Assembly (NCBI GenBank): GCA_964525605.1
Contig: CAZGKT010000005.1
Coordinates: 9,122-73,121 of the forward strand
Length of the DNA stretch: 64,000 bases
Origin: an uncultured bacterium
Lineage (GTDB): Bacteria; Oederibacteriota; Muellerivitia; Muellerivitales; Muellerivitaceae
Reading direction: 5' to 3'
In this document: positions 38,909 to 56,061 of the stretch, piece by piece
Position numbering within the stretch: position 1 is the first letter of the stretch
How the letters are laid out: each line of letters starts with the position of its first letter
The notes under the pieces: generated by a model
The model's database searches: none
Seen by the model: the letters and a program-made list of their open reading frames with translations, nothing else
Told to the model about the DNA's origin: nothing
Made by a program: the position numbers and the translations under genes

Positions 38909-41452
38909 TTGAAAATGCCTGCACGGCCTGAACCGATCCTGAATGATTGGAGTTCTCCCTTGAAACGGTTTTATGGGGTGTTTCGGTTGGGCTTGTGTAT
39001 GACTCTCTTTCAACCTTTTCCCCTTTTTGCGCTTTCATTTGATCTGACACCAACTCCTAGGCCGAATCCTTCCTCTAAACCTGACTCAGCCATCCAGAAA
39101 AAAATCCACCAGGCTTATATGAATATTCCTCTCTCGTTTGAGAAAAACGAGGGTCAAACAGATCCACAAGTTCGTTTTCTGGCCAGAGGCCAGGGCTACA
39201 GCCTGTTTCTCACCCCAGCCGAAGCGGTATTAACGCTGTGTAAATCCAAAAACACCAAACCGCAAACTCAATCAAGGGATGTGGTGCGCATGCGTCTCAT
39301 GGGCGGTAACCGTCTCTGTCGGTTCGAGGGGCAGGAGAAGCAGTCAGGCAAATCCAACTATTTCATCGGCCCTAATCCGGAGAAGTGGAGAACCGGAATC
39401 GAGCAATACTCGAAAGTGCGCATGTCCAATGTCTATCCCGGTATCGATATGGTTTATTACGGCAAACAAAGCCGGATGGAATACGACTTCGTCGTGCAGC
39501 CAGGCGCGGATCCATCCAACATACGCTTAAAGTTTGAAGGGATGAAAAGCGCGAAGGTTGGTAATGAAGGGAACCTCCAAATCAAGACCAGCGGTGGAAA
39601 CCTGACCTTTCATTCGCCTGTGATTTACCAAGGAGAGGGAAGCGAAAGAACCCGGGTTCAAGGGCAGTTTGTTCAAATGGCCCAGGGCGAGGTGCGGTTT
39701 GAGGTGGGAGCCTATGATGCCACGAAAACACTTGTGATTGATCCCACCCTCGTTTACTCAACCTACTTGGGTGGAAGCGCCGATGACTTTGCGAGCGCGA
39801 TCGCGGTGGATGGGGGCGGAAACGCCTATGTCACGGGTCAAACGGACGGTAATTTCCCCACGACTGCCGGGACCTACCAGAATGCTTTTGGCGGCGGTGG
39901 AACGGACGCTTTTGTGGCAAAAATAGGCGTTACCGGAAACGTTTTGATCTATTCGACTTATTTGGGCGGAAATGGAATGGATGTAGGTTGGGGTATCGCG
40001 GTTAATGGTGCGGGGAACGCTTATGTGACAGGACAAACCACCGGAAATTTTCCAATCACCGGCGGGGTTGTTCAGACGGTTTTTAACGGTGGCGGCAATC
40101 CCTCGGCCTTTGTGACTGAATTGAACCCCTTTGGGAGCGCGCTTGTCTTTTCCACCTATCTGGGCGGAAGCGGCGGTAGCTGGGGTTACGGGATCACGGG
40201 GGATGGCGGGGGTGACATTTATGTGACGGGTGTAGCTCTCGCGAACTTTCCAACAACAGCCGGAGCCTACCAACCCCTATTTGGTGGGAGTGCTTCAAAC
40301 GGATTTGTAACCAAGTTGAATCCAAACGCGACCGTCATGCTTTATTCCACTTATCTGGGCGGCGCCAGTTCGACCGGTGCACTTGCCGTCGCGGTGGATG
40401 GGGCTGGAGATGCCTACGTCACGGGAGAAGCCCAAGCCAATTTTCCGACTACCGCTGGGGCCTACCAAACGGTCTATGGGGGAGGGACCTCCAATGCAAT
40501 GATCGTGAAATTAAACCCTGCCGGAAGCGCCCTGCTTTATGCAACCTATCTGGGTGGTAACGGAAACGATTTTGGGTATGCCATCACGATTGATGGCGCC
40601 GGAAGCGCTTATGTGACGGGGAACACAACTTCGGGGAATTTTCCAACCACCGGAGGGGCCTATCAGACGGCTTTGAACGGGGGTCAAGACGCTTTTGTCT
40701 CGAAATTGAACCCGGCTGGCTCCGCCCTCTCCTATTCCACCTTCCTAGGTGGGAATGGCATGACGAGCGGACAAGGCATCGCGGTGGATCCGAGCGGGAA
40801 TATCTATGTGACTGGCTCCACAAGCGGAAACTTTCCTACAACCACAGGGGCCATCCAGGCCGCCTATGGAGGGGGCAATTCGGATGCTTTTGTGGCAGAG
40901 ATTAAACCGGCGGGGGGCGGCGCAAACGATCTGGTGGCTTCAACCTATTTGGGTGGGGGTGGCAATGATACCGCCCATGGATTGGCATTGGATTCATCGC
41001 AGAATGTTTATATCGCGGGAATCACCAGCGGGGCTTTTCCAACAACTGGAGGAGTCTTTCAACCGAATTATGGCGGTGGGAATTCCGACGCATTCATCGC
41101 TAAATTATCCTTGGCCACCCCCACCAACACGCCCCAACCCACCAACACCCCTGTTCCGCCCTGTTCCGCCCAATTTTTGATTTCAAAAAATGAGTATTCT
41201 CCCAAGACCTCCCTGACCCAACTCGCCATCAATTACAGCCTTTGCGCACCGGGGTCTTGCTCGATCAAGATTTACAACACCGCCGGGGAAAAGGTGAGGA
41301 CGTTAACCGATTCCAGCCAGAACATCGGGGTTTACCAGTTACCCTGGGACGGAAGAAACGACAAACAAGCCTATGTGGCCAGCGGGGTTTACCTCCTCGT
41401 CTTTACGGAGCCCCTGGGAATCCACTATGGCAGGGTCATGATCGTTAATTAG
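38909..41452 (+). CDS. SBBP beta-propeller repeat protein with C-terminal FlgD-Ig-like domain
   Basis: Roughly 15 tandem units of 'YSTYLGGxGxDxGxxIAVDxxGNAYVTGxTxSxNFPTTxGAYQ' (SBBP, PF06739-like). The C-terminus 'SIKIYNTAGEKVRTL...WDGRND...VASGVYLLV' matches the FlgD Ig-like pattern. Confidence 0.6.
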   Translation: MKMPARPEPILNDWSSPLKRFYGVFRLGLCMTLFQPFPLFALSFDLTPTPRPNPSSKPDSAIQKKIHQAYMNIPLSFEKNEGQTDPQVRFLARGQGYSLFLTPAEAVLTLCKSKNTKPQTQSRDVVRMRLMGGNRLCRFEGQEKQSGKSNYFIGPNPEKWRTGIEQYSKVRMSNVYPGIDMVYYGKQSRMEYDFVVQPGADPSNIRLKFEGMKSAKVGNEGNLQIKTSGGNLTFHSPVIYQGEGSERTRVQGQFVQMAQGEVRFEVGAYDATKTLVIDPTLVYSTYLGGSADDFASAIAVDGGGNAYVTGQTDGNFPTTAGTYQNAFGGGGTDAFVAKIGVTGNVLIYSTYLGGNGMDVGWGIAVNGAGNAYVTGQTTGNFPITGGVVQTVFNGGGNPSAFVTELNPFGSALVFSTYLGGSGGSWGYGITGDGGGDIYVTGVALANFPTTAGAYQPLFGGSASNGFVTKLNPNATVMLYSTYLGGASSTGALAVAVDGAGDAYVTGEAQANFPTTAGAYQTVYGGGTSNAMIVKLNPAGSALLYATYLGGNGNDFGYAITIDGAGSAYVTGNTTSGNFPTTGGAYQTALNGGQDAFVSKLNPAGSALSYSTFLGGNGMTSGQGIAVDPSGNIYVTGSTSGNFPTTTGAIQAAYGGGNSDAFVAEIKPAGGGANDLVASTYLGGGGNDTAHGLALDSSQNVYIAGITSGAFPTTGGVFQPNYGGGNSDAFIAKLSLATPTNTPQPTNTPVPPCSAQFLISKNEYSPKTSLTQLAINYSLCAPGSCSIKIYNTAGEKVRTLTDSSQNIGVYQLPWDGRNDKQAYVASGVYLLVFTEPLGIHYGRVMIVN

Positions 41453-41596
41453 GGCCCTGTCTTTTTTTGGTCGGCCTGCGGTAAAGTCTGCGGGCTACCT
41501 CAATACTCTTCGTGCCGCAAGAAAGACACTATGTCTCAAGAGTTTCACTCGAATCCCCCGGATGTGCCCCCAAACCTAATCCGACAGGTTCGGACG

Positions 41597-41974
41597 ATGG
41601 CCCTGGGGTTGGTTTATTTTGCGGCGGCTTTTTCCTTTGCTCAGCCGGTTCCCACGCCGACTCCCACGGTTGTTCCTTCTTGCTCCACGTATTTCTTTGT
41701 TTCGAGAAACGAGTATTCGCCCTCGGCCAATATGCCCCAGCTCTATGTCCAAAGTGATCTTTGTTATGCCGGGAATTATTCCATTAAAATCTATAATACC
41801 GCGGGGGAAAAGGTAAGAACCTTGCGGGATACCACCAGTCAGCCCGCAGGGCCCGATCAAGTGACATGGGACGGAAAAAATGACGGTGGCCAAAACGTGG
41901 CCAGCGGGGTTTACATCATCATCATGCTTGACACCCTGTCCTATCACGCCGCTAAGGTGGTGGTAATCCGTTAG
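41597..41974 (+). CDS. Small secreted protein made only of the FlgD-Ig-like domain
   Basis: 'NEYSP...YSIKIYNTAGEKVRTL...WDGKNDGGQNVASGVYIIIM' repeats the C-terminal domain of 38909-41452. Confidence 0.5.
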   Translation: MALGLVYFAAAFSFAQPVPTPTPTVVPSCSTYFFVSRNEYSPSANMPQLYVQSDLCYAGNYSIKIYNTAGEKVRTLRDTTSQPAGPDQVTWDGKNDGGQNVASGVYIIIMLDTLSYHAAKVVVIR

Positions 41975-46449: not shown

Positions 46450-49400
46450 TTGACCGACCAGCGGTTCGAATATTACGCTTTCATCAGCTACAGCCACAAG
46501 GACGAGAAATGGGCCCAGTGGCTTCATCGAAAGCTCGAAAGCTATCGGCTGCCCAACACCGTCCGCAAGGAACTGGGCGAGAACTTGCCCAAGCCCCCCT
46601 ACAAGGTCTTCCGCGACGTCACCGACCTGGGGATCGGCGCCCTACGGGAAAATCTCCACCAGGAACTGGAGGAATCCCGCTTCCTGATCGTCATCTGCTC
46701 CCCCAACTCGGCCCGGCCCAACGACGAGGGCAAGCATTGGGTGAACGACGAGATCAAGAAATTCATCGACATGGGGCGCATCGACCGCGTCGTTCCCTTC
46801 ATCGTGGGGGGCACCCCTTTTTCCCATGATCCGCTCCAGGAATGCCTTCCCCCTGCTCTCAAAGAGAACAACATCCTCGGGACCAACGTGGCGGTGGCCG
46901 GTAAAGAATCCGCTTTCGTGCATGTGGTGGCGAAGATCCTGGGCCTCAAGTTCGACCATCTCTATCAGCGCCACCTGCGGGCCGAGCGCAAAAAAAAATG
47001 GCTCCTGGGCGCGGTTGTGGCTGTTCTGCTGGCCCTTCTGGGGGTCTTCGTCGATTACGAACGAACCCAGACGGCCTATTACGCCGACTATGTGGAAAAA
47101 TATTGCGTGCCCCAGGGCCTCTTCCCCCTCACGAAGGACCAGGTGGGCCGCCGGGCCCAATCGTGGAAATTCATCTCCCGCCATTGGAAGGTCGCTTCCG
47201 TCTCCCGGGTGAACGCCTTCGGGACGGTGAGGGCCGCGGACGACGCGATCGAGGATCCCCGGCCATGCCTGATGAAATATTTTTACCGGGATAACGGCAC
47301 GGTGGACCGGGTCGAGGTTTGCGATGACCAGGGAAAGACACAGGTCATCCGGGCCCTATCGGCCGACCTGAATTTCATTTCCTTTAAGGACGCCTCCGGC
47401 CATGGGGAACAGATGGGGGAAACCCTGGCCGTCCAGAAGCCCTCGGATACGGACAACACGATCGCGAGCAACACGGTGGCCGGCTGGGAACTGGTTTACG
47501 GGCTCGACGGCACCACCCGCGAGATCCACTACCGGAACAGTTTCAACCAGCCGGCGGCCGACTCGAACGGCCTTTACGGGGAGCGAACCACCTACACGGC
47601 CCAGGGCCAGCTCCAGGCCCTCCAGTTCCTGGATGACAAGGGTGCCGTCATGTCCATCGCGGGCGGGCTGGCGGGCAAAAGCATCCGCTACGACCCCCCG
47701 GCGAATGGGAAATTCCTGGGGAGTCCCACCCACATCACCTGGCAGAACGCGCATGGGACGGAATGGCCGAGCCAGAACAACGTGGCCGAGGAAACGGACC
47801 AATACGACGCCTATGGGAACGTCACGCAGAAGGATTATTTCGACGTCCATTCCAACCCCGTGACCTGCGCGGAGGGCTACGAGCGAGTCCTGATGCGCTA
47901 CGACGACCATGGGGACATCCTCGAATGGGATTACCAGACCCATGGGGGCCTCCCCATGCTCAACAAGCACGGCTTCGCCAAGGTCACCGAGCGGTACGAC
48001 GCCCGGGGGTTGTATGCCGAAGGGATGGGATACGGGATGGACGGGAAACCCGCCTATTCGGAGGATTACGGCTGGTCCGAGATCAGGGTGCAGCGGGACG
48101 CGACGGGCCGACAGGTGGAAGCCGCCTATTTCGGGGTCGACCAGAAACCCTGTTTGAGCGCAAATGGATACGCCCGCGCCACCTCCCGCTACGACGCCGG
48201 GGGCAAGATCACCGATTACGCCGTCTTCGGCGTGGACGGCAAGCCCATCCTGGGGAAGGACGCCTACGCCCGGCTGACCGCCCGCTACGATTCGCGGGAG
48301 CTGTTGCTGGAAGCCGATTATTTCGGCGCGAAGGGCGAACCCGTCCTCATGGGCGACGGCTACGCCAAATGGACCAACCAGTACGACGCCATGGGCCGGC
48401 TGACCCAGGCGGACTTTTTCGGCGTGGACGGGAAGGGCTGTCTCACCACGGACGGCTACGCGCGCGTGACCCGCAAGTACGACGAACGGGGACATGTGGT
48501 GGAGGAAGTCTACCTGGGCACGGACGGCCAGCCGGTGCTCGATAAGGACGGCTATGCCCGGATCGATTACGCCTATGACGACCACGGCAACTGGACCGGG
48601 TGCAAAACCTACGGCACGGACGGCCAGTTGATCAACATCAAGGACGGCTATGCTACCTGGGAGGCCCAGTTCGACGCCTACGGCCACAAGGTCCGCATGG
48701 CCTACTTCGACAGCGCGGGGAAACCGGTGGTGAGTACCCAGAACCGGTTCGCCGCCCAAACCGCCCAATGCGACGACGCGGGCAATTTGACCGGGGTTGC
48801 GAACTTCGGGGCGGACGGGAAACCCATGATCGGGATCTACGGCTACGCTAGCTACGCCAAGAAATTCGACGCCCGGGGCAACGCCACCGAGGTCTCCTAT
48901 TTCGGCGTGGACGGCCAGCCCATGGCCTTCGGCGCCGCCGGTTACGCCCGCATGACCCGCACCTACGACGACCGGGGTTATGTCACGGAGGAAAGCACCT
49001 TCGGGACGGACGGCAAACCCTTCGTCAACGACCAGGGATATTCCCGCAAAACCGACCAGTACGACACGAACGGATTCATCACCGAGGAGGCGGTTTACGG
49101 GGCGGACGGGAACCCCATCCTGCTGAAGGACCATGTTTACTCCAAATGGACTGCCCAGTACGACGGCCACGGCAACCAGACCGACCACGCCTATTTCGGC
49201 GCCGACGGCAAGCCGGTCACGATCGACGCGGGCTACGCGCGCGTGACAGACAGCTACGACGAGCATGGGAGGGAAACGGCGGAAGCCTATTACGGGCTGG
49301 ATGGGAAGCCCACGTTGATCACCGATGGCTACGCCAGCCTCGCCTATCTGTACGACGCCAAGGGTTACAAAACCGAGGAGGCCTTTTTCGGCATTGACGG

Positions 49401-50406
49401 CAAACCCATCGTGCCTCCCAACAGCTACGCAAAGATCGACTATCAATACGACGACCATGGCTACATGACCGGCATCACGCTATTTGGGACGGATGGAAAA
49501 CCCGTGGTCGGGAGCAACGGTTACGCCCGAAAGACCACGCGCTATAACGCTCAGGGCCAGGAACTGGAAGTGGACACGTTCGGGGTCGACGGCAAACCCA
49601 TCATGAATGATGGCTACGCGCGGTTTACGGACCAATACGATGCGGCGGGAAACGAGACCGAAAGGGCCTATTTCGGGGTGGGGGGAGAACCCGTTACGCT
49701 GGCCGGTGGCGGGGGATATGCCCGCGAAACGATGAAATATGACGATCAGCGGCGCATAGTCGAGCAGGCCTATTTCGGCGTTGACGGCAAGCCTTTCGTG
49801 ATCGAGGCGGGTTTCGCGCGGGAGACCATGAAATACGACGCGAAGGGCCATGTCCTCGAATGGGATTATTTCGGGCCGGACGGGAACCCCATGAACTGTC
49901 TGAAGGGCTACGCGCGTTTTCTTTGCCAGTACGACGACAACGGAAATGTCACCGAACAATCGGCCTTCGGCGTGGGCGGAAAACCCATCGTCTCAAAAGA
50001 GGGCTTTGTCCGGGTGACCGACCAATATGATGCGAACGGCAACAAAATCGTTGAGGCTTATTACGGGGTCAATGGAAAGCCCATGATCGACAAGACATGG
50101 GGCTGTGCGAGATGGACTGCTAAATATGACGAACGGGGCTATAACCTTGAAAGGGATTATTTTGGCGTTAAGGATAAACTAGTTCTAAACATCGAAGGAT
50201 ATGCTCGTGTCGTTAAAAAATACGACGCGCGAGAAAATGAGGTGGAAGAAGATTTTTTTGGTGTGCGGGGCACGCCTGTTCTATCTAAAAAGGGGTTCTC
50301 AAAAAAGAAGATCTTGTATGACAATGCGGGAAACAAAATCAAGGTAGAATATTTCGGAAAAAACGGAAAACCGGTTCATCCCAAGGACGTTTCTGACAAC
50401 GGTTGA
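46450..50406 (+). CDS. TIR-domain protein with one TM helix and ~25 tandem 38-aa YD-like repeats (1318 aa)
   Basis: N-terminal 'YYAFISYSHKDEKWAQWL...FLIVICSP...WVNDEIKKF' is a TIR-fold signature. A TM helix 'WLLGAVVAVLLALLGVFV' lies near aa 185. From about aa 450 the protein is periodic 'YFGxDGKPxxxxxGYARxTxxYDxxGNxTE'. TTG start. Confidence 0.8.
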   Translation: MTDQRFEYYAFISYSHKDEKWAQWLHRKLESYRLPNTVRKELGENLPKPPYKVFRDVTDLGIGALRENLHQELEESRFLIVICSPNSARPNDEGKHWVNDEIKKFIDMGRIDRVVPFIVGGTPFSHDPLQECLPPALKENNILGTNVAVAGKESAFVHVVAKILGLKFDHLYQRHLRAERKKKWLLGAVVAVLLALLGVFVDYERTQTAYYADYVEKYCVPQGLFPLTKDQVGRRAQSWKFISRHWKVASVSRVNAFGTVRAADDAIEDPRPCLMKYFYRDNGTVDRVEVCDDQGKTQVIRALSADLNFISFKDASGHGEQMGETLAVQKPSDTDNTIASNTVAGWELVYGLDGTTREIHYRNSFNQPAADSNGLYGERTTYTAQGQLQALQFLDDKGAVMSIAGGLAGKSIRYDPPANGKFLGSPTHITWQNAHGTEWPSQNNVAEETDQYDAYGNVTQKDYFDVHSNPVTCAEGYERVLMRYDDHGDILEWDYQTHGGLPMLNKHGFAKVTERYDARGLYAEGMGYGMDGKPAYSEDYGWSEIRVQRDATGRQVEAAYFGVDQKPCLSANGYARATSRYDAGGKITDYAVFGVDGKPILGKDAYARLTARYDSRELLLEADYFGAKGEPVLMGDGYAKWTNQYDAMGRLTQADFFGVDGKGCLTTDGYARVTRKYDERGHVVEEVYLGTDGQPVLDKDGYARIDYAYDDHGNWTGCKTYGTDGQLINIKDGYATWEAQFDAYGHKVRMAYFDSAGKPVVSTQNRFAAQTAQCDDAGNLTGVANFGADGKPMIGIYGYASYAKKFDARGNATEVSYFGVDGQPMAFGAAGYARMTRTYDDRGYVTEESTFGTDGKPFVNDQGYSRKTDQYDTNGFITEEAVYGADGNPILLKDHVYSKWTAQYDGHGNQTDHAYFGADGKPVTIDAGYARVTDSYDEHGRETAEAYYGLDGKPTLITDGYASLAYLYDAKGYKTEEAFFGIDGKPIVPPNSYAKIDYQYDDHGYMTGITLFGTDGKPVVGSNGYARKTTRYNAQGQELEVDTFGVDGKPIMNDGYARFTDQYDAAGNETERAYFGVGGEPVTLAGGGGYARETMKYDDQRRIVEQAYFGVDGKPFVIEAGFARETMKYDAKGHVLEWDYFGPDGNPMNCLKGYARFLCQYDDNGNVTEQSAFGVGGKPIVSKEGFVRVTDQYDANGNKIVEAYYGVNGKPMIDKTWGCARWTAKYDERGYNLERDYFGVKDKLVLNIEGYARVVKKYDARENEVEEDFFGVRGTPVLSKKGFSKKKILYDNAGNKIKVEYFGKNGKPVHPKDVSDNG

Positions 50407-50499
50407 GGCTGATCCTAGCTGAAAGATAAGACCTGCTCCACATTGCGGTATGGGATGCGAGTTGGATGGGTCGGAAAAAAACGAATATCGGGGTGATAA

Positions 50500-51633
50500 A
50501 TGGTTTCTAGCGAACCGAATCTGGCGAGCTGGATGAAAGAAGAGGCCCTTCCCCTTTGGGCGGAACGGGGCGTGGACCGCCAAAAGGGCGGTTTCGTGGA
50601 AGAACTGAATCAGGATGGTAGCCCCTCCAGTGTGGCCTTCAAACGGGTGCGGGTTCAGGGCCGCCAGCTTTTCTCTTTCTCGATCGCCGCGATCCTGGGG
50701 TGGAACAAAGACGCGGCCCGGATCGCCGACCTGGGTTTTGAATATCTCAAGACCCGTTGCCGGGGCAAGGATGGCGTCTGGGTCAAAAAGCTTTCCCGGG
50801 ATGGGGCCATCCTCGACTCCCAGCTTGACCTCTATGACACCGCCTTCATCGTGCTGGGGCTCATCACCTATTACCGACTGACCAAGAATTCCGAAGCCCT
50901 GGCGCTGGTCGAGGATACCCTCCGCATGGTCCAAACCCATCTGGCCGCGGACTCGCCCGCCGGTTACCGCCAATTGATCGCCGAAAAGGACATTTTGCGC
51001 CAGAACCCGAACATGCATTGGTTTGAGTGCATGCTTTTCTGCTACGAGGCTACTCAGGATTCACGGTTCCTTGCAGAGGTTTCAAAGTTCTACAAACGCA
51101 TGGAAGATTCGGTCATCGACGGGAAAACGGGAGCCTTGCGTGAGATCTTCGACAACCAATGGAAGCCGATTCGGGAAGGCGGAAAGATTCTGGTGGAGCC
51201 GGGGCACCATTACGAATGGGCCTGGTTGTTCAACCGGGCCTCGAGCAAAATCGCTGTGAATCCGGACCTAATCACAAGAATCGCGGGTTTCGCCGACAGG
51301 TACGGGGTAAATGCCCAGACTGGTCTCGTCTATGACCAGGTGAGCGACCAGGGGGAACTAACCCAATCCACCCACCGCCTCTGGGTGCAGACGGAAGCCC
51401 TCAAGGCTTGGTTGGTGCGTCCCGATGTGGGAGAAGCGGCCCGGATTCAACGCATCAAGCAGATCGAATCGAACCTGTTGAAATACTATCTCACCCGCGA
51501 GCCGAAGGGCTCCTGGAGCGACCGGCTGGATTCGGACGGGCGGTGTCATCCCGGCCCAATTCCCGCCAGCTCGATGTACCACATCATGGTCTGCGTGACA
51601 GAGTTTGCGGCCTGGCGGACGGCTCAAGCCTAA
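50500..51633 (+). CDS. N-acylglucosamine 2-epimerase (AGE)-family sugar isomerase/epimerase
   Basis: 'HHYEWAWLF' and 'RLWVQTEALKAWL' match conserved AGE / alpha6-alpha6 barrel motifs. Confidence 0.65.
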   Translation: MVSSEPNLASWMKEEALPLWAERGVDRQKGGFVEELNQDGSPSSVAFKRVRVQGRQLFSFSIAAILGWNKDAARIADLGFEYLKTRCRGKDGVWVKKLSRDGAILDSQLDLYDTAFIVLGLITYYRLTKNSEALALVEDTLRMVQTHLAADSPAGYRQLIAEKDILRQNPNMHWFECMLFCYEATQDSRFLAEVSKFYKRMEDSVIDGKTGALREIFDNQWKPIREGGKILVEPGHHYEWAWLFNRASSKIAVNPDLITRIAGFADRYGVNAQTGLVYDQVSDQGELTQSTHRLWVQTEALKAWLVRPDVGEAARIQRIKQIESNLLKYYLTREPKGSWSDRLDSDGRCHPGPIPASSMYHIMVCVTEFAAWRTAQA

Positions 51634-51670
51634 CGGTGTGGTTCATGAATTTAAATGAAAGTTGGTTTGA

Positions 51671-52255
51671 ATGCCCGGGAAAATAAAAAGTATTTGCGTC
51701 AATTGTGCCTCCAGCCCGGGAGCCCAACCTGAATATCTCGAAGCCTCCCGTGCGTTGGGGAAGGTGTTGGCCCAACAGGGATTAACGCTCGTCTATGGCG
51801 GTGCCAATGTGGGACTGATGGGCGAAGTGGCTGACGCGGTCTTGAACAACGGGGGCCGGGTGGTGGGGGTCATTACCGAGAAACTTAATGAAAAGGTCGG
51901 GCACCAAGGGCTTCAAGAACTTCACGTCGTTTCCACCATGCATGAAAGAAAAACCAAGATGTTCGAATTGTCCGACGGTTTCATCGCCATGCCCGGGGGC
52001 ATTGGAACACTTGAAGAAGTGACGGAAGTATTGACCTGGGCTCAGTTGGGCCTGCATACCAAGCCGGTCGGCTTTTTGAACATCCGGGCTTATTACGACC
52101 CCTTGATGAAATTCTTGGATCATGCCGTTAATGAGCGTTTCTTGAGATCGGAAAACATGAGAATGATTTTGATGTCTCCCGATCCGGTTCAACTTCTCGT
52201 GGAAATGGAAGCCTATGTACCATCCCCGGTTGAAAAATGGATGGACCGCAGGTAA
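51671..52255 (+). CDS. LOG-family nucleotide 5'-monophosphate phosphoribohydrolase
   Basis: 'LVYGGANVGLMG' and 'PGGIGTLEEVTEVLTWAQLG' are the TIGR00730/LOG signature. Confidence 0.8.
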   Translation: MPGKIKSICVNCASSPGAQPEYLEASRALGKVLAQQGLTLVYGGANVGLMGEVADAVLNNGGRVVGVITEKLNEKVGHQGLQELHVVSTMHERKTKMFELSDGFIAMPGGIGTLEEVTEVLTWAQLGLHTKPVGFLNIRAYYDPLMKFLDHAVNERFLRSENMRMILMSPDPVQLLVEMEAYVPSPVEKWMDRR

Positions 52256-52302
52256 CTCTCAAAAGCCTATTCCCAAAACCCGATACTTTGTGAAAAATAA
52301 AA

Positions 52303-52340
52303 AAGGCCTTCCCGTGAACAGGGAAAGCCTTTTTTATTTA
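52303..52340. terminator. Bidirectional rho-independent terminator
   Basis: AGGCCTTCCCG-tgaac-AGGGAAAGCCT followed by TTTTTTATTT, flanked by A-runs, between convergent genes. Confidence 0.55.
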
Positions 52341-52360
52341 TAAGCGACGGATAAACCCTT

Positions 52361-52909
52361 TTACCCTTTGCGGGGGGGATTATTCTTGTTGGAACTCTTG
52401 GGGGCTAGAACATCACGCGCTTGTTCTCCGCCCTTTCCCGCAGGGGGGGGAGGTGGAGGAGGAGGCGGTCTCAGACCTGCTGATCCACCCGTGTTGTTTT
52501 GCGAGGGCGGTAGATCGTCATCCCCTTTCTTCATCTTCGACCAGGCCCATCGTCCTCCCAGGATCAGGAGAATGAGGAGAAGAAGCCAAAGCCACCAATT
52601 GCCGCCCAGCATCGACGTCGGGGCGGGGGTGGGAACGGGGGTTGGAGCCGAAACGACCGCCACCGTCGGGGTCGCTAGGGCCGGGACCTGGGTGACGGCG
52701 GCCGTGTTGTCCGATGAACCGTGTTTCGCATGGTGGTTCTTGCCATGGCCCGAATCCGCTATTTCCGTTGGGAGTGGAGTCGGGTCGGCATTCAACATGG
52801 TTGTGGGTTGCGGCTCGGTGCGGACATGACTCTGGTTACAGGCGGGCAAAAGCAGGGCGCCGGCTCCCAGGAAGATCGACGAGCATAAAACGGCGAAGAT
52901 TCGGTTCAT
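52361..52909 (-). CDS. Pro-rich membrane protein
   Basis: Signal/lipobox-like N-terminus (LLLPACN), a Pro/Thr/Ala linker, a TM helix 'WWLWLLLLILLILGG' and a PPPPPPPPP tract. Confidence 0.4.
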   Translation of the reverse strand: MNRIFAVLCSSIFLGAGALLLPACNQSHVRTEPQPTTMLNADPTPLPTEIADSGHGKNHHAKHGSSDNTAAVTQVPALATPTVAVVSAPTPVPTPAPTSMLGGNWWLWLLLLILLILGGRWAWSKMKKGDDDLPPSQNNTGGSAGLRPPPPPPPPPAGKGGEQARDVLAPKSSNKNNPPRKG

Positions 52910-53100
52910 GGGGCTCCTTCATTTCTTGGCATGTAAAACGACCGACGGGCAGATACCGAGTCACCAATTATTGTGGACCGGGCGCCAAAATCAAACCTTT
53001 TTATCAACCCTTTTTGGCCCGTAAACCGAAAACCGAAAGAAGAAAGCAGGCTTGTCTTCGTTCTGATAAGCTTTTCCCGTATGACCCGGGGAGACAAACC

Positions 53101-56061
53101 ATGAGCGACCAGCGTTTTGAGTATTACGCCTTCATCAGCTACAGCCACAAAGACGAGAAATGGGCCAAGTGGCTTCACCAGAGGCTGGAGGCCTACAAAC
53201 TTCCCAACACGATCCGCAAAGAACTGGGCGATAACGTCCCCAAGCCACCCTACAAGGTTTTTCGCGATGTCACCGATCTGGGAGTGGGTGCCCTCAAGGA
53301 AAATCTGAGCCGCGAACTGGAAGACTCCCGTTTTCTTATCGTCGTTTGTTCCCCCCACTCGGCCAAACCTAACGCGGAGGGCAAGCACTGGGTCAACGAC
53401 GAGATCACGAAATTCATCGAGATGGGGCGCCTCGACCGGATTGTGCCTTTTATCGTGGATGGCACGGCCTTCTCTACCGACCCGAACCAAGAATGCCTCC
53501 CGCCCGCCGTCAAGGAGAACAACATCCTCGGCACCAGCGTGGCCGTCGGGGGCAGGGAGCAGGCGTTCATCCACGTGGTGGCGAAGATCCTAGGGCTCAA
53601 GTTCGACCAACTCTACCAGAGGCATCTTCGCGCGGAACGCAAAAAAAAGTGGCTTCAGGCGGCCGCGACGCTCCTGGTCCTGGGGCTGTTGGGATTGGGA
53701 GCGGATTACGAGCGGGTGAAGACCGCCTATTTCGCCGACTATGTGGAAAAATATTACGCGCCCCAGGGCATTCTGCCCCTTAAACCCGAACAAGTTCAGC
53801 ACCGCAACCAATCGTGGAAATTTTCCTACCACCACTGGAAGGTCGTTTCGGTGGCCTGCGTCAACTCGGCCGGTACCTTGATGGACCCTGGAAGTTCGGG
53901 CCCGAGGAACAACGCGCCGATGATCAAGATCATTCCCCGCGCTCCCATGACCCGGATTTATTACCGGGACAACGGCGCGGTGGAGCGCCTCGAGGAATTT
54001 GACCTGAACGGCAACGCGGTCCGGACCAAAAACATCGCCTCGGACATGAAGTTCGAGTCGTTCAAGGATCCGGCGGGCCACGGGGTTCAGCTGGGGGGGA
54101 GCGTGCAGGTGGGTTCCAGCCCCGGTTCTTCCAACGATCATTCCAAAAATATCGTCGCGGGGTGGGAAGTCACGTTTCAGCCTGACGGCAAAATCGACAC
54201 GCTTCAGTACAAAAGCAGTTTCAATGCTCCCGCCTGCGACCTCAACGGCATCTTCGGCCAGCGCACCACTTACACGTCCCCGGGACAGGTGCAGAGCATC
54301 CAGAACCTGGACGCCGAGGGAAAACCGGCGCTGGACGCATACGGCTCCACCGGCGTGAGCTTCAAATATGACGGCCAGGGTAATCTGCAGGACACCGCCT
54401 GGCAGTTCAGTTCCACTTCCACCCGGCTGAACTCCTTCGGGTTCGCCGAGGAAAAAGACGCCTTCGACCCCGATGGAAACGTGCTGGTGAAGGCCTTTTA
54501 CGACGCGTACGGCCAGCCGGTGACGAACATGGACGGCATCGCGAAAGCCACGTTCAAGTACGACGGGCGGGGCAACCGGACGGAGGGGGTCGACTACGGA
54601 CAAGACCCGGGAACCGCCGGGGGCAACACAGCCCTGATCCTCAGCTGGAAGGCCCAATACGATGCCCGGGGATATGAGACTCAATTCGTGCTTTACGACA
54701 AGGATGTGGAGCAATATGTCCGCACGGACCAGTATGACGCGCGCGGCAACCTGACGGGGGAGGCCTATTTCGGGCCGGACGGCAAACCGGTGTGGCACAA
54801 CGACAGCTACTCGAGATGGGTAGGCCAATATGATGAACGCGGAAAGGAAATATCGGAAAGCTATTTCGGCGTGGATGAAAAACCGGTGCTCGGCAAGGAT
54901 GGGTACGCGCAAATTCGGTACCTCGACGACGAAAACGGCAATGAAACAGGGGAAAGTTACTGGGGCGTGGATGGGAAACCCGTGACCTGTCAGCAAGGCT
55001 ACGCCCGGTGCGACATCAAGCGTGATGAGCGCGGTAACGGGGTGGAATGGAAATACTATGGAATCGACGGGAATCTCATTGAGAATGCCCTCGGTTATGC
55101 GCGGGTCACCAAAAAATATGACGAAAGCGGCCATGAATTGGAATGGGCCTGTTGGGGCGAAAACGGCGATCCGGTTTTATGCCGGGACGGGTACGCTCAA
55201 ATCACCACCCAGTACGATGAGAGTGGCCATCTGGTGGATTGGGCCAGCTGGGGCCTGAAGGGGGAACCGGCAATCTGCAAGAGTAACGGTTACGCCCGCA
55301 TGACGAAAAAATACGACGTCCAGGGCAATGAGATCGAGGAGGCCTATTTCGGGTTGAGTGGAAAGCCCATGTTGAATTCACAATACGGGGACGCGAAATG
55401 GACGGCCCAGTATGACAAGTGGGGTCATGAGACCCTCTTGGCCTATTACGGCACCCGGGGCCAACTGGTGATGGGCCCCTATGGTTACGCCAAAACACTA
55501 TCCGTATTCGATGAAAGCGGCCAGCAAATCGAATGGGAAATTGACGGATCGGATGGGAAGCTTTTACTGGACAAAAAACGCGGATACGCGAAATGGACCC
55601 AGAAATACGACGGAAAGCACAACCTGATTGAGACAGCCTATTGGGGGGCCAAAGACCAGCTGGTCTTGGGCCCGGACGAATGCGCCCGATGGACCCAGAC
55701 CTACGATGATCGGGGCAATGTGACCGAAACCGACTACTTCGGGGTGAGGGACCAGCTGATCCTGGGCCCGGATGGCTACGCGAAAATCATCGCCCAGTGG
55801 GACCCGAACAATGATGAAATCGCGGCCCAGTTGTACGGCGTCAACGGGAAGCCGATGATCGGGCCCAAGGGATACGCGAGCTGGACTGCTCGGTACGACG
55901 CGCGCCACAACGATTTGGAGTGGGCGTGCTTTGGCCTAAAAGGTGAACCGGTGGAAGACAAGGATGGATTGGCGAGATGGACCGCCACCTACGATGATCA
56001 AGGAAAAGCTCTGACGGTGCAAAAATACAACGCGGACGGGAACCAGATCCAAGCTTATTGA
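53101..56061 (+). CDS. TIR-domain protein with one TM helix and YD-like repeats, paralog 2 (986 aa)
   Basis: The first ~220 aa are about 80% identical to 46450-50406 ('MSDQRFEYYAFISYSHKDEKWAKWL...'), including the same TM helix position. The C-terminal repeats are of the same type but divergent in sequence and number. Confidence 0.8.
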   Translation: MSDQRFEYYAFISYSHKDEKWAKWLHQRLEAYKLPNTIRKELGDNVPKPPYKVFRDVTDLGVGALKENLSRELEDSRFLIVVCSPHSAKPNAEGKHWVNDEITKFIEMGRLDRIVPFIVDGTAFSTDPNQECLPPAVKENNILGTSVAVGGREQAFIHVVAKILGLKFDQLYQRHLRAERKKKWLQAAATLLVLGLLGLGADYERVKTAYFADYVEKYYAPQGILPLKPEQVQHRNQSWKFSYHHWKVVSVACVNSAGTLMDPGSSGPRNNAPMIKIIPRAPMTRIYYRDNGAVERLEEFDLNGNAVRTKNIASDMKFESFKDPAGHGVQLGGSVQVGSSPGSSNDHSKNIVAGWEVTFQPDGKIDTLQYKSSFNAPACDLNGIFGQRTTYTSPGQVQSIQNLDAEGKPALDAYGSTGVSFKYDGQGNLQDTAWQFSSTSTRLNSFGFAEEKDAFDPDGNVLVKAFYDAYGQPVTNMDGIAKATFKYDGRGNRTEGVDYGQDPGTAGGNTALILSWKAQYDARGYETQFVLYDKDVEQYVRTDQYDARGNLTGEAYFGPDGKPVWHNDSYSRWVGQYDERGKEISESYFGVDEKPVLGKDGYAQIRYLDDENGNETGESYWGVDGKPVTCQQGYARCDIKRDERGNGVEWKYYGIDGNLIENALGYARVTKKYDESGHELEWACWGENGDPVLCRDGYAQITTQYDESGHLVDWASWGLKGEPAICKSNGYARMTKKYDVQGNEIEEAYFGLSGKPMLNSQYGDAKWTAQYDKWGHETLLAYYGTRGQLVMGPYGYAKTLSVFDESGQQIEWEIDGSDGKLLLDKKRGYAKWTQKYDGKHNLIETAYWGAKDQLVLGPDECARWTQTYDDRGNVTETDYFGVRDQLILGPDGYAKIIAQWDPNNDEIAAQLYGVNGKPMIGPKGYASWTARYDARHNDLEWACFGLKGEPVEDKDGLARWTATYDDQGKALTVQKYNADGNQIQAY

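Follow-up and report, generated by a model that had tools for sequence, protein, structure and literature searches.

A 64-kb stretch of contig CAZGKT010000005.1 from an uncultured bacterium (the window, meaning throughout the whole stretch analysed) contains two paralogous genes, here called p1 and p2, each encoding a large protein in which an N-terminal TIR domain is followed by a single transmembrane (TM) helix and a long array of tandem repeats. We tentatively propose, at somewhat less than an even chance, that these proteins are type II membrane sensors whose ectodomain controls the clustering of a cytoplasmic TIR NADase. Catalytic bacterial TIR domains and YD/MORN-like beta-hairpins are both known; what appears to be new is the combination of TIR, one TM helix and an extracytoplasmic array. 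The pair had been noticed in an earlier reading of the DNA made from its letters alone (the sequence-only reading), which placed two TIR-TM-repeat paralogues in one locus, and both open reading frames (ORFs) are there, on the plus strand, at the coordinates that it gave.

ORF limits were taken from the plus-strand reading frames within 46450-56061 of the window. The p1 gene is also called, as a 1318-amino-acid (aa) gene, on a metagenome contig (L001). The reading frame of p2 is open from 52714 to 56061, and we place its start at the ATG at 53101 (MSDQRFEYY), which has GGGGAG 8 nt upstream and agrees with metagenome gene calls; the stretch upstream of this codon is not homologous to p1. The exact p2 protein is present on three metagenome contigs and carries the NCBI name 'hypothetical protein'. 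The two proteins align end to end, p1 having about nine extra repeat units. Their identity is 81–82% over residues 1–180, in line with the value of about 80% given for the TIR domains by the sequence-only reading, and 56% in the hydrophobic helix, 60% in the 55 residues that follow and 36–39% in the remainder, so that the strong divergence which that reading saw between the repeat domains also holds. A scan of the window found no third copy of the family and no further TIR gene.

TIR domain and membrane helix

The N-terminus of each protein matches Pfam TIR_2 (PF13676) above the curated cut-off of 28 bits (p1, 45.3 bits, E 1.5e-11; p2, 48.7 bits, E 1.3e-12), and Pfam ThsB_TIR is narrowly passed (24.9 and 26.5 bits against a cut-off of 21.2; p1, E 2.7e-5). 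The flavodoxin-like alpha/beta fold of TIR domains is found in both. The solved structure that matches best in sequence is the TIR domain of SARM1, nearly the whole of which is covered, with an E value of 0.05 for p1 alone and 1e-3 for a family profile of 22 sequences. In this alignment E101 of p1 and p2, within the motif WVNDE, falls on the glutamate of the SARM1 motif WVHKE, E642, the known catalytic residue of that enzyme. E101 is invariant in two alignments of the family (A1, with 74 sequences, and A2), and a glutamate occupies this position in all but one of the 231 homologues whose alignment spans it (230/231). The TIR domain is under strong purifying selection, with a ratio of nonsynonymous to synonymous substitution rates (dN/dS) of 0.13 in both of the ortholog pairs described below, which fits a working enzyme. 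Both the TIR fold claimed by the sequence-only reading and a glutamate at the catalytic position are thus in place, and the N-terminus of p1 and p2 is probably a catalytically competent, SARM1-like TIR domain that would be expected to cleave NAD+.

Exactly one hydrophobic segment is present in each protein, at residues 184–203 in both copies, as the sequence-only reading had noted in describing a single TM helix at the same position (best 17-aa Kyte–Doolittle mean, 3.01 in p1 and 1.92 in p2; elsewhere never above 1.2). The flank on its N-terminal side, RAERKKK, has a net charge of +5, and the flank on its C-terminal side (DYER) a charge of 0 (p1) or +1. No N-terminal signal peptide is present in p1 or p2, the first TIR strand beginning at residue 8. 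By the positive-inside rule, a single helix with this charge asymmetry points to an N-in/C-out orientation, and we predict that p1 and p2 are type II single-pass inner-membrane proteins with a cytoplasmic TIR domain. In the AlphaFold2 (AF2) model a continuous helix extends from residue 168 to 204, the last TIR helix running directly into the TM helix, so that the model puts the TIR domain right against the inner membrane face and links it tightly to the TM helix.

Genes for a TonB-dependent receptor, an outer-membrane efflux protein and an OmpL-like porin elsewhere in the window mark the host as diderm, and in such a host the C-terminal region should be periplasmic and not exposed on the cell surface. 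The 'surface' sensing domain of the sequence-only reading is therefore better placed in the periplasm. One homologue (P0008) ends in a PDZ domain; bacterial PDZ domains are typically periplasmic, and the C-terminal location of this one fits the C-out orientation.

Repeat array

The beta-hairpin region beyond the helix is 1113 aa long in p1 and 781 aa in p2. Its membrane-proximal part (207 to about 413) might have passed for a linker joining the array to the TM helix, but AF2 models it as degenerate hairpins of the same kind as the array itself. In p1 this part contains the conserved segment DYERxxTAYYADYVEKYxxPQG, and columns Y210, D213, Y214, P221 and G223 are conserved in the 74-sequence alignment A1. 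Tandem repeats then follow, as the sequence-only reading had described them over 800–1100 aa, with a period of 32 aa in place of its figure of about 38 aa (27 units in p1 and about 18 in p2). The consensus unit is xGYARxTxxYDxxGNxxExxYFGxDGKPVxxx, in which the scaffold positions G2, Y/F3, A4, Y10, D11, G14, F/Y22, G23, G26 and P28 are conserved and positions 1, 6, 8, 13, 16, 19, 31 and 32 are highly variable. Units within one protein are at most 56% identical to one another, and Tandem Repeats Finder detected no DNA repeat of period 96, the array being visible at the protein level only. From these two observations the arrays of p1 and p2 appear to be old and not recently amplified.

Each unit is modelled by AF2 as a two-strand beta-hairpin plus a loop, with a predicted local distance difference test (pLDDT) score of about 90. 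The global shape is uncertain, with a predicted TM-score (pTM) of 0.59, and, together with the low TM-scores to solved structures given below, this suggests that the array as a whole may form an open spiral or a sheet. Both proteins end inside a repeat unit. Pfam gave no repeat-family match in p1 or p2, and no RHS_repeat at E <= 0.01; homologues have weak scores for RHS_repeat, MORN_2 and DUF2963, those for RHS_repeat being summed scores in which no single stretch is significant. Locally the repeats are YD/Rhs/MORN-like hairpins, and the protein lies outside the Rhs cocoon-toxin family.

A large family with paralogues that diverge in the ectodomain

The same architecture, which the sequence-only reading suggested might be sought in other genomes, is widespread. 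A word-seeded search retrieved at least 655 homologous proteins. TIR_2 appears in the precomputed Pfam annotation of all but one or two of the best 120 of these, and in most of the 120 hundreds to about 1,900 further residues follow a hydrophobic helix located at about residues 175–220. When residues 1–260 (TIR domain, TM helix and first hairpins) were compared exhaustively by phmmer with 1.84 billion representatives clustered at 50% identity, there were 1,319 matches at E <= 1e-30 and 7,394 at E <= 1e-10, and the alignment runs past the TM helix in nearly all of the best 150. At least 549 loci were found in a scan of one genome per species. The loci listed come from Planctomycetota, Lentisphaerota, Verrucomicrobiota (Akkermansia, Kiritimatiellae), Bacteroidota (Bacteroides, Prevotella, Alistipes, Muribaculaceae), Bacillota (Lachnospiraceae, Oscillospiraceae, Ruminococcus, Blautia), Actinomycetota (Coriobacteriia), Desulfobacterota (Desulfovibrionaceae), Alphaproteobacteria and Ignavibacteria, and the distribution across phyla is patchy. 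Database names for the members are generic ('TIR domain-containing protein', 'YD repeat-containing protein', 'hypothetical protein').

Two or more nearby family ORFs, some of them fragments, occur in 21 of 76 loci, with up to four or five in tandem. Neighbouring paralogues were compared in 14 full-length pairs from 12 locus records, two of which are overlapping stretches of one contig, and in every pair (14/14) the identity of the TIR domains exceeds that of the ectodomains, by 11–33 points. Together with the tandem loci, this marks the pattern seen in the window as a property of the family, and p1 and p2 appear as ordinary members of a large uncharacterised family and not as a local oddity. 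Some variants were also encountered. Three extra hydrophobic helices lie near the C-terminus, at about residues 990–1070, in four homologues (P0083, P0100, P0112 and P0119), and a further homologue (P0029) matched the TIR query over three separate stretches, which suggests more than one TIR-like region. At L018/L019 (Thermoguttaceae metagenome-assembled genome, JAFQXE010000004.1), L045 and L053, three to five family ORFs stand head-to-tail on one contig; some of them are in fragments, suggesting frameshifts or assembly breaks within the repeat arrays.

Orthologues of both p1 and p2, in the same order, are found in a related metagenomic genome (L081/L082), and the duplication therefore predates that speciation. 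Pairwise dN/dS values were calculated by region with the NG86 method between the window genes and these orthologues, for which dS is 0.8–1.4. In the membrane-proximal region dN/dS is 0.39 for the p1 pair and 0.24 for the p2 pair, and in the repeats 0.39 and 0.16, respectively, to be set beside the lower TIR value given above. The p1 orthologues differ by about nine repeat units; in the p2 pair, which aligns without gaps, scaffold, variable and other repeat positions all have dN/dS of 0.10–0.14. By these pairwise estimates the ectodomain appears to evolve faster than the TIR domain, and p1 faster than p2, with all regions under purifying selection. Of the 'rapidly diversifying' domain in the sequence-only reading, the faster ectodomain is borne out, whereas the repeat dN/dS of 0.16–0.39, with no class of repeat positions near 1, gives no sign of diversifying selection. 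Between the paralogues, TIR dS is 0.63 in L081 and 1.22 in the window genome, and between orthologues 0.81–0.84; the low value in L081 may be chance variation over 180 codons, or the TIR region may have undergone partial gene conversion there.

Genomic context

The features of the window are collected in Table 1. Upstream of p1 are the genes of a secreted beta-propeller protein and of a TonB-dependent receptor and, further upstream, KdpB/KdpD, RND efflux genes and permeases; downstream of p2 are genes for a PilZ protein, a TPR protein, a phosphoribosyltransferase and a prepilin peptidase, and another that is called Fe/Mn superoxide dismutase in a matching metagenome contig. The TonB-dependent receptor, which has a CarboxypepD_reg N-terminus, comes after the 147-aa ORF of Table 1; these are ordinary envelope genes and indicate a diderm host. 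No tRNA gene was found in the window.

Table 1. Features of p1, p2 and neighbouring genes, in window coordinates
Feature	Position	Strand	Basis or remark
847-aa protein: DUF7948, SBBP beta-propeller repeats, FlgD_ig C-terminal domain	38909-41452	+	
147-aa ORF, FlgD_ig / CHU_C-like (type IX secretion signal) domain	41531-41974	+	
p1, TIR-TM-repeat protein, 1318 aa	46450..50406	+	ORF, translation; TTG start
p1 TIR domain, about aa 1-167	46450..46950	+	Pfam TIR_2, ThsB_TIR, SARM1 TIR match
p1 Glu101 codon (WVNDE), putative catalytic glutamate	46750..46752	+	SARM1 WVHKE alignment, conservation
p1 transmembrane helix, aa 184-203, after RAERKKK	46999..47058	+	Kyte-Doolittle, flank charges
p1 membrane-proximal degenerate beta-hairpin region, aa 206-442	47065..47775	+	Conserved columns; p2 model
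p1 array, 27 tandem 32-aa YD-like repeats, aa 443-1312	47776..50385	+	Unit parsing, position profile
AGE-family (GlcNAc 2-epimerase-like) gene	50500-51633	+	Between p1 and p2
Canonical LOG/TIGR00730 gene, SLOG fold	51671-52255	+	198 bits; between p1 and p2
182-aa lipoprotein-type gene, divergent from p2	52361-52909	-	Counterpart at L081:9262-9798 (-)
p2, TIR-TM-repeat protein, 986 aa	53101..56061	+	ATG start, homology to p1
p2 TIR domain, about aa 1-167	53101..53601	+	
p2 Glu101 codon (WVNDE)	53401..53403	+	Alignments, homologue conservation
p2 transmembrane helix, aa 184-203	53650..53709	+	Kyte-Doolittle; AF2 helix 168-204
p2 membrane-proximal degenerate beta-hairpin region, aa 206-413	53716..54339	+	AF2 strands from residue 207
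p2 array, about 18 tandem 32-aa YD-like repeats, aa 414-986	54340..56058	+	Unit parsing, AF2

In L081/L082 the order is p1 orthologue, AGE epimerase, (DinB, a 208-aa ORF), LOG, (XylR-type activator, pirin), the lipoprotein on the minus strand, p2 orthologue and PilZ. A functional link of the TIR genes to the AGE epimerase, LOG/TIGR00730, lipoprotein or PilZ genes was considered and set aside, none of these being present among 967 neighbour ORFs of 77 other family loci. Since the AGE epimerase and LOG genes are kept in L081/L082 and absent at those 77 loci, their position between the two TIR genes probably reflects synteny within the lineage and not a functional link. The 182-aa protein combines a lipoprotein-type signal (LLPAC) with a Pro/Thr-rich region, a WWLWLLLLILLILGG helix and a poly-Pro tail, and no Pfam family matches it; its gene overlaps the non-coding stretch by which the p2 ORF extends upstream (52714-53100).

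Clustering of the same 967 ORFs revealed a recurrent set of partners at about 15 of the 77 loci (L005, L017, L038, L040, L041, L048, L053, L054, L058, L059, L060, L063, L066, L070 and L078), all within about 10 kb and mostly co-directional with the family gene. These loci belong to five phyla (Lentisphaeria, Kiritimatiellae, Ignavibacteriaceae, several Bacteroidales and several Clostridia); at L070 the partners are partly on the opposite strand, and the full set is not found at every locus. The set consists of a zinc-ribbon-bearing M48 peptidase (about 295 aa), a smaller zinc-ribbon protein (about 170 aa), a 650–720-aa multi-TM protein that weakly matches TrkA_N and RyR, a protein with a RyR domain (PF02026, E 1e-31) and further TIR proteins, among them TIR-TM proteins whose ectodomains are of other kinds. 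None of the partner proteins has a PADLOC match, and none of the partner genes occurs in the p1/p2 window. We regard the RyR / M48 / zinc-ribbon / TIR cluster as a candidate for an undescribed multi-gene system.

Possible function

Bacterial TIR enzymes are central to anti-phage immunity and lie at the evolutionary root of animal and plant TIR signalling, and in TIR NADases (SARM1, AbTir, TIR-SAVED, TIR-STING) it is oligomerisation that activates. In the sensor that we propose, clustering would accordingly be the switch for NAD+ cleavage. At rest, the membrane anchor and the ectodomain would hold the TIR domains apart; an extracytoplasmic ligand or a perturbation of the envelope would make the ectodomains cluster or re-pack; the TIR domains would thereby be brought together into the composite active site that TIR enzymes require; and depletion of NAD+, or a signal derived from ADP-ribose, would lead to growth arrest or a downstream response. 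The two paralogues would then couple the same effector to different sensor arrays.

The sequence-only reading went further and saw a system of the conflict type. The conserved catalytic residue, tandem paralogy with divergence biased towards the sensor, patchy distribution and TIR-rich clusters in gut bacteria argue for such a role. Several results weigh against it, and against the sensor-effector model as a whole, and call for caution. Housekeeping genes surround the locus, its synteny is stable and the duplication is an old one. No defence genes adjoin p1 and p2, and their immediate neighbours never recur at the 77 other loci. A search of a phage collection found no family member, and one of plasmids found only distant TIR-only matches, on rhizobial megaplasmids. 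PADLOC-DB v2.0.0 gave no full-length match, only weak ones to the TIR part (PDC-S66, E 5e-5; SAVED_TIR; ThsB). Positive selection was not seen in any region or class of repeat positions (dN/dS 0.10–0.39), a weak test with dS of 0.8–2.2 near saturation, and pairwise data at such divergence are blind to episodic positive selection. The global shape of the modelled array is also uncertain. Of the conflict-type claim, then, the sensor-biased divergence of paralogues and the patchy distribution stand, while the stable synteny, the housekeeping neighbours and the lack of adjacent defence genes tell the other way.

These same features of the locus are what gives weight to the main alternative, that p1 and p2 are housekeeping transmembrane receptors which signal from outside to inside without immunity or cell death, an envelope or environmental cue (e.g. 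a glycan or the state of peptidoglycan, to which the repeats, rich in aromatic residues, would bind) producing a TIR-derived nucleotide messenger or a tuning of NAD+ turnover. We consider this unlikely on balance, though a serious contender. The chromosomal synteny, an ancient duplication kept in two species, purifying selection on every region (dN/dS 0.1–0.4) and a window with no mobile-element or defence-island context would all be expected of such a receptor, and its repeat scaffold is rich in conserved Tyr, Phe and Gly, as known carbohydrate-binding hairpin repeats also are. It accords less well with multi-copy tandem arrays, diverging ectodomains and patchy distribution, which are more typical of conflict genes, with the several other TIR proteins that surround the family gene at about 15 loci, or with the finding that no nearby gene encodes a receptor cognate to a TIR product. 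A bolder extension of the sensor-effector model, which we offer as speculation and think rather doubtful, would make the family a prokaryotic counterpart of the Toll-like receptors (TLRs): an immune receptor whose diversifiable YD-like array senses a feature of phage or foreign cells outside the cytoplasm, whose enzymatic TIR domain, informed through a single helix, collapses NAD+ or signals, and which in gut and rumen bacteria acts within an as yet undescribed system of M48, zinc-ribbon, TrkA_N-RyR multi-TM, RyR and extra TIR proteins.

Two further explanations abandon the idea of a membrane-bound sensor enzyme. If the TIR domain were a non-catalytic module for protein-protein interaction, as in TLR/MyD88, that anchors a periplasmic fibre or an envelope-spanning spacer, the long regular beta array with its variable number of units would resemble that of structural repeat proteins; but the glutamate at the catalytic position, generally absent from scaffold TIR domains, is retained almost without exception here, and the closest match in sequence and structure is an enzyme, SARM1, so that we judge this explanation improbable. 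We give hardly any credence to the view that the proteins are Rhs/YD polymorphic toxins or secreted TIR toxins, in which a repeat cocoon delivers or encapsulates a toxic domain against other cells. It draws on the best Foldseek matches in the PDB, which are to type VI secretion system (T6SS) Rhs effectors, Tc toxins and teneurins (E 1.7e-28 to 1e-13), and on the weak Pfam RHS_repeat matches of homologues. Against it, a regular-expression search with DPxG[LWIVM], for the core motif PxxxxDPxGL, found no occurrence in p1 or p2, both of which fall short of the Pfam RHS_repeat threshold, lack a C-terminal toxin domain and break off within a repeat; secretion modules (PAAR, VgrG, a signal peptide or others) are absent, the TIR domain is N-terminal, ahead of the TM helix, and a closed shell of one fixed size could hardly accommodate a repeat number of 18–27, with far more in homologues.

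Comparison with known systems

No description of a TIR-TM-repeat architecture was found in the literature searched, and PADLOC offers weak matches to the TIR part alone, in agreement with the sequence-only reading, which did not recognise a described system. Group 6 of Toshchakov and Neuwald, with its WxxW motif in helix alphaA, was examined as a possible relative and rejected, being an actinobacterial TIR-TPR class different from p1 and p2. With Thoeris ThsB, TIR-SAVED, TIR-STING and PycTIR the two proteins share a bacterial TIR domain, a conserved glutamate and a fused, presumed sensor, but that sensor is predicted to lie outside the cytoplasm, whereas theirs is cytoplasmic. The PADLOC model for ThsB matched p2 only, and weakly (15.2 bits, E 0.005). 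No ThsA, CD-NTase or cyclase partner gene is present near p1 and p2; in particular, no ThsA effector (SIR2 or TM/Macro with a SLOG sensor) is adjacent, the neighbours being the AGE epimerase, LOG, lipoprotein and PilZ genes. To our knowledge, all bacterial TIR systems characterised so far detect their triggers inside the cytoplasm.

The array itself is like Rhs/YD-repeat proteins and teneurins in its local hairpin geometry and YD..G motif, and unlike them in its period of 32 aa and in a model without a closed cocoon (TM-score 0.13–0.29). No closed beta-cocoon shell was found in p1 or p2, nor do they contain an Rhs core/autoprotease motif, a C-terminal toxin, or EGF, NHL or plug domains. We do not count p1 and p2 among the Rhs/YD toxins: an RHS_repeat match, the core motif and a toxin tail are all missing, and the global TM-scores are very low. 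Teneurins are likewise single-pass proteins of type II, their extracellular YD region lying C-terminally (PMC3278476, PMC13018210). For p1 and p2 such a topology is predicted from the single TM helix and the positive-inside rule, and YD-like hairpins are present, but of the teneurin superfold (FN-plug, NHL propeller, YD shell, ABD/Tox-GHH) no Pfam domain was detected in them, and TM-scores to teneurins and to the teneurin-like protein 9ifo are at most 0.17. The 2026 paper on the bacterial teneurin-like protein makes no mention of TIR. Among viral structures, the best matches of the p1/p2 array are MORN-repeat proteins, a likeness to the MORN-variant or YwqK-type repeats. These have units of about 22–23 aa and are mostly cytoplasmic, whereas the p1/p2 unit is 32 aa long, with an extra FGxDGKP loop.

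SARM1, of the SARM1 / TIR-1 type of NAD+ hydrolases and the closest match to the predicted enzyme, is regulated within an octamer by cytoplasmic ARM and SAM domains, whereas p1 and p2 carry the TIR domain at the N-terminus, attached to a TM helix and, beyond it, a repeat array predicted to be extracytoplasmic. In overall plan the resemblance is to the TLRs, which likewise join extracytoplasmic solenoid-like repeats through a single-pass helix to an intracellular TIR domain. We see no evidence that the whole TLR and TIR-TM-repeat architectures share a common descent: the orientation of p1 and p2 is reversed (type II, with an N-terminal TIR domain), their repeats are YD/MORN-like beta-hairpins in place of leucine-rich repeats, and their TIR domain keeps the glutamate at the catalytic position where TLR TIR domains act as scaffolds. 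If the proposed mechanism is correct, outside-in TIR signalling in bacteria would be directly testable, the family being carried by Bacteroides, Prevotella, Akkermansia, Clostridia and planctomycetes, and the RyR / M48 / zinc-ribbon / TIR neighbourhood would offer a concrete candidate system in genetically tractable gut bacteria. The p1 and p2 proteins would then represent a catalytic analogue of the TLRs with reversed topology.

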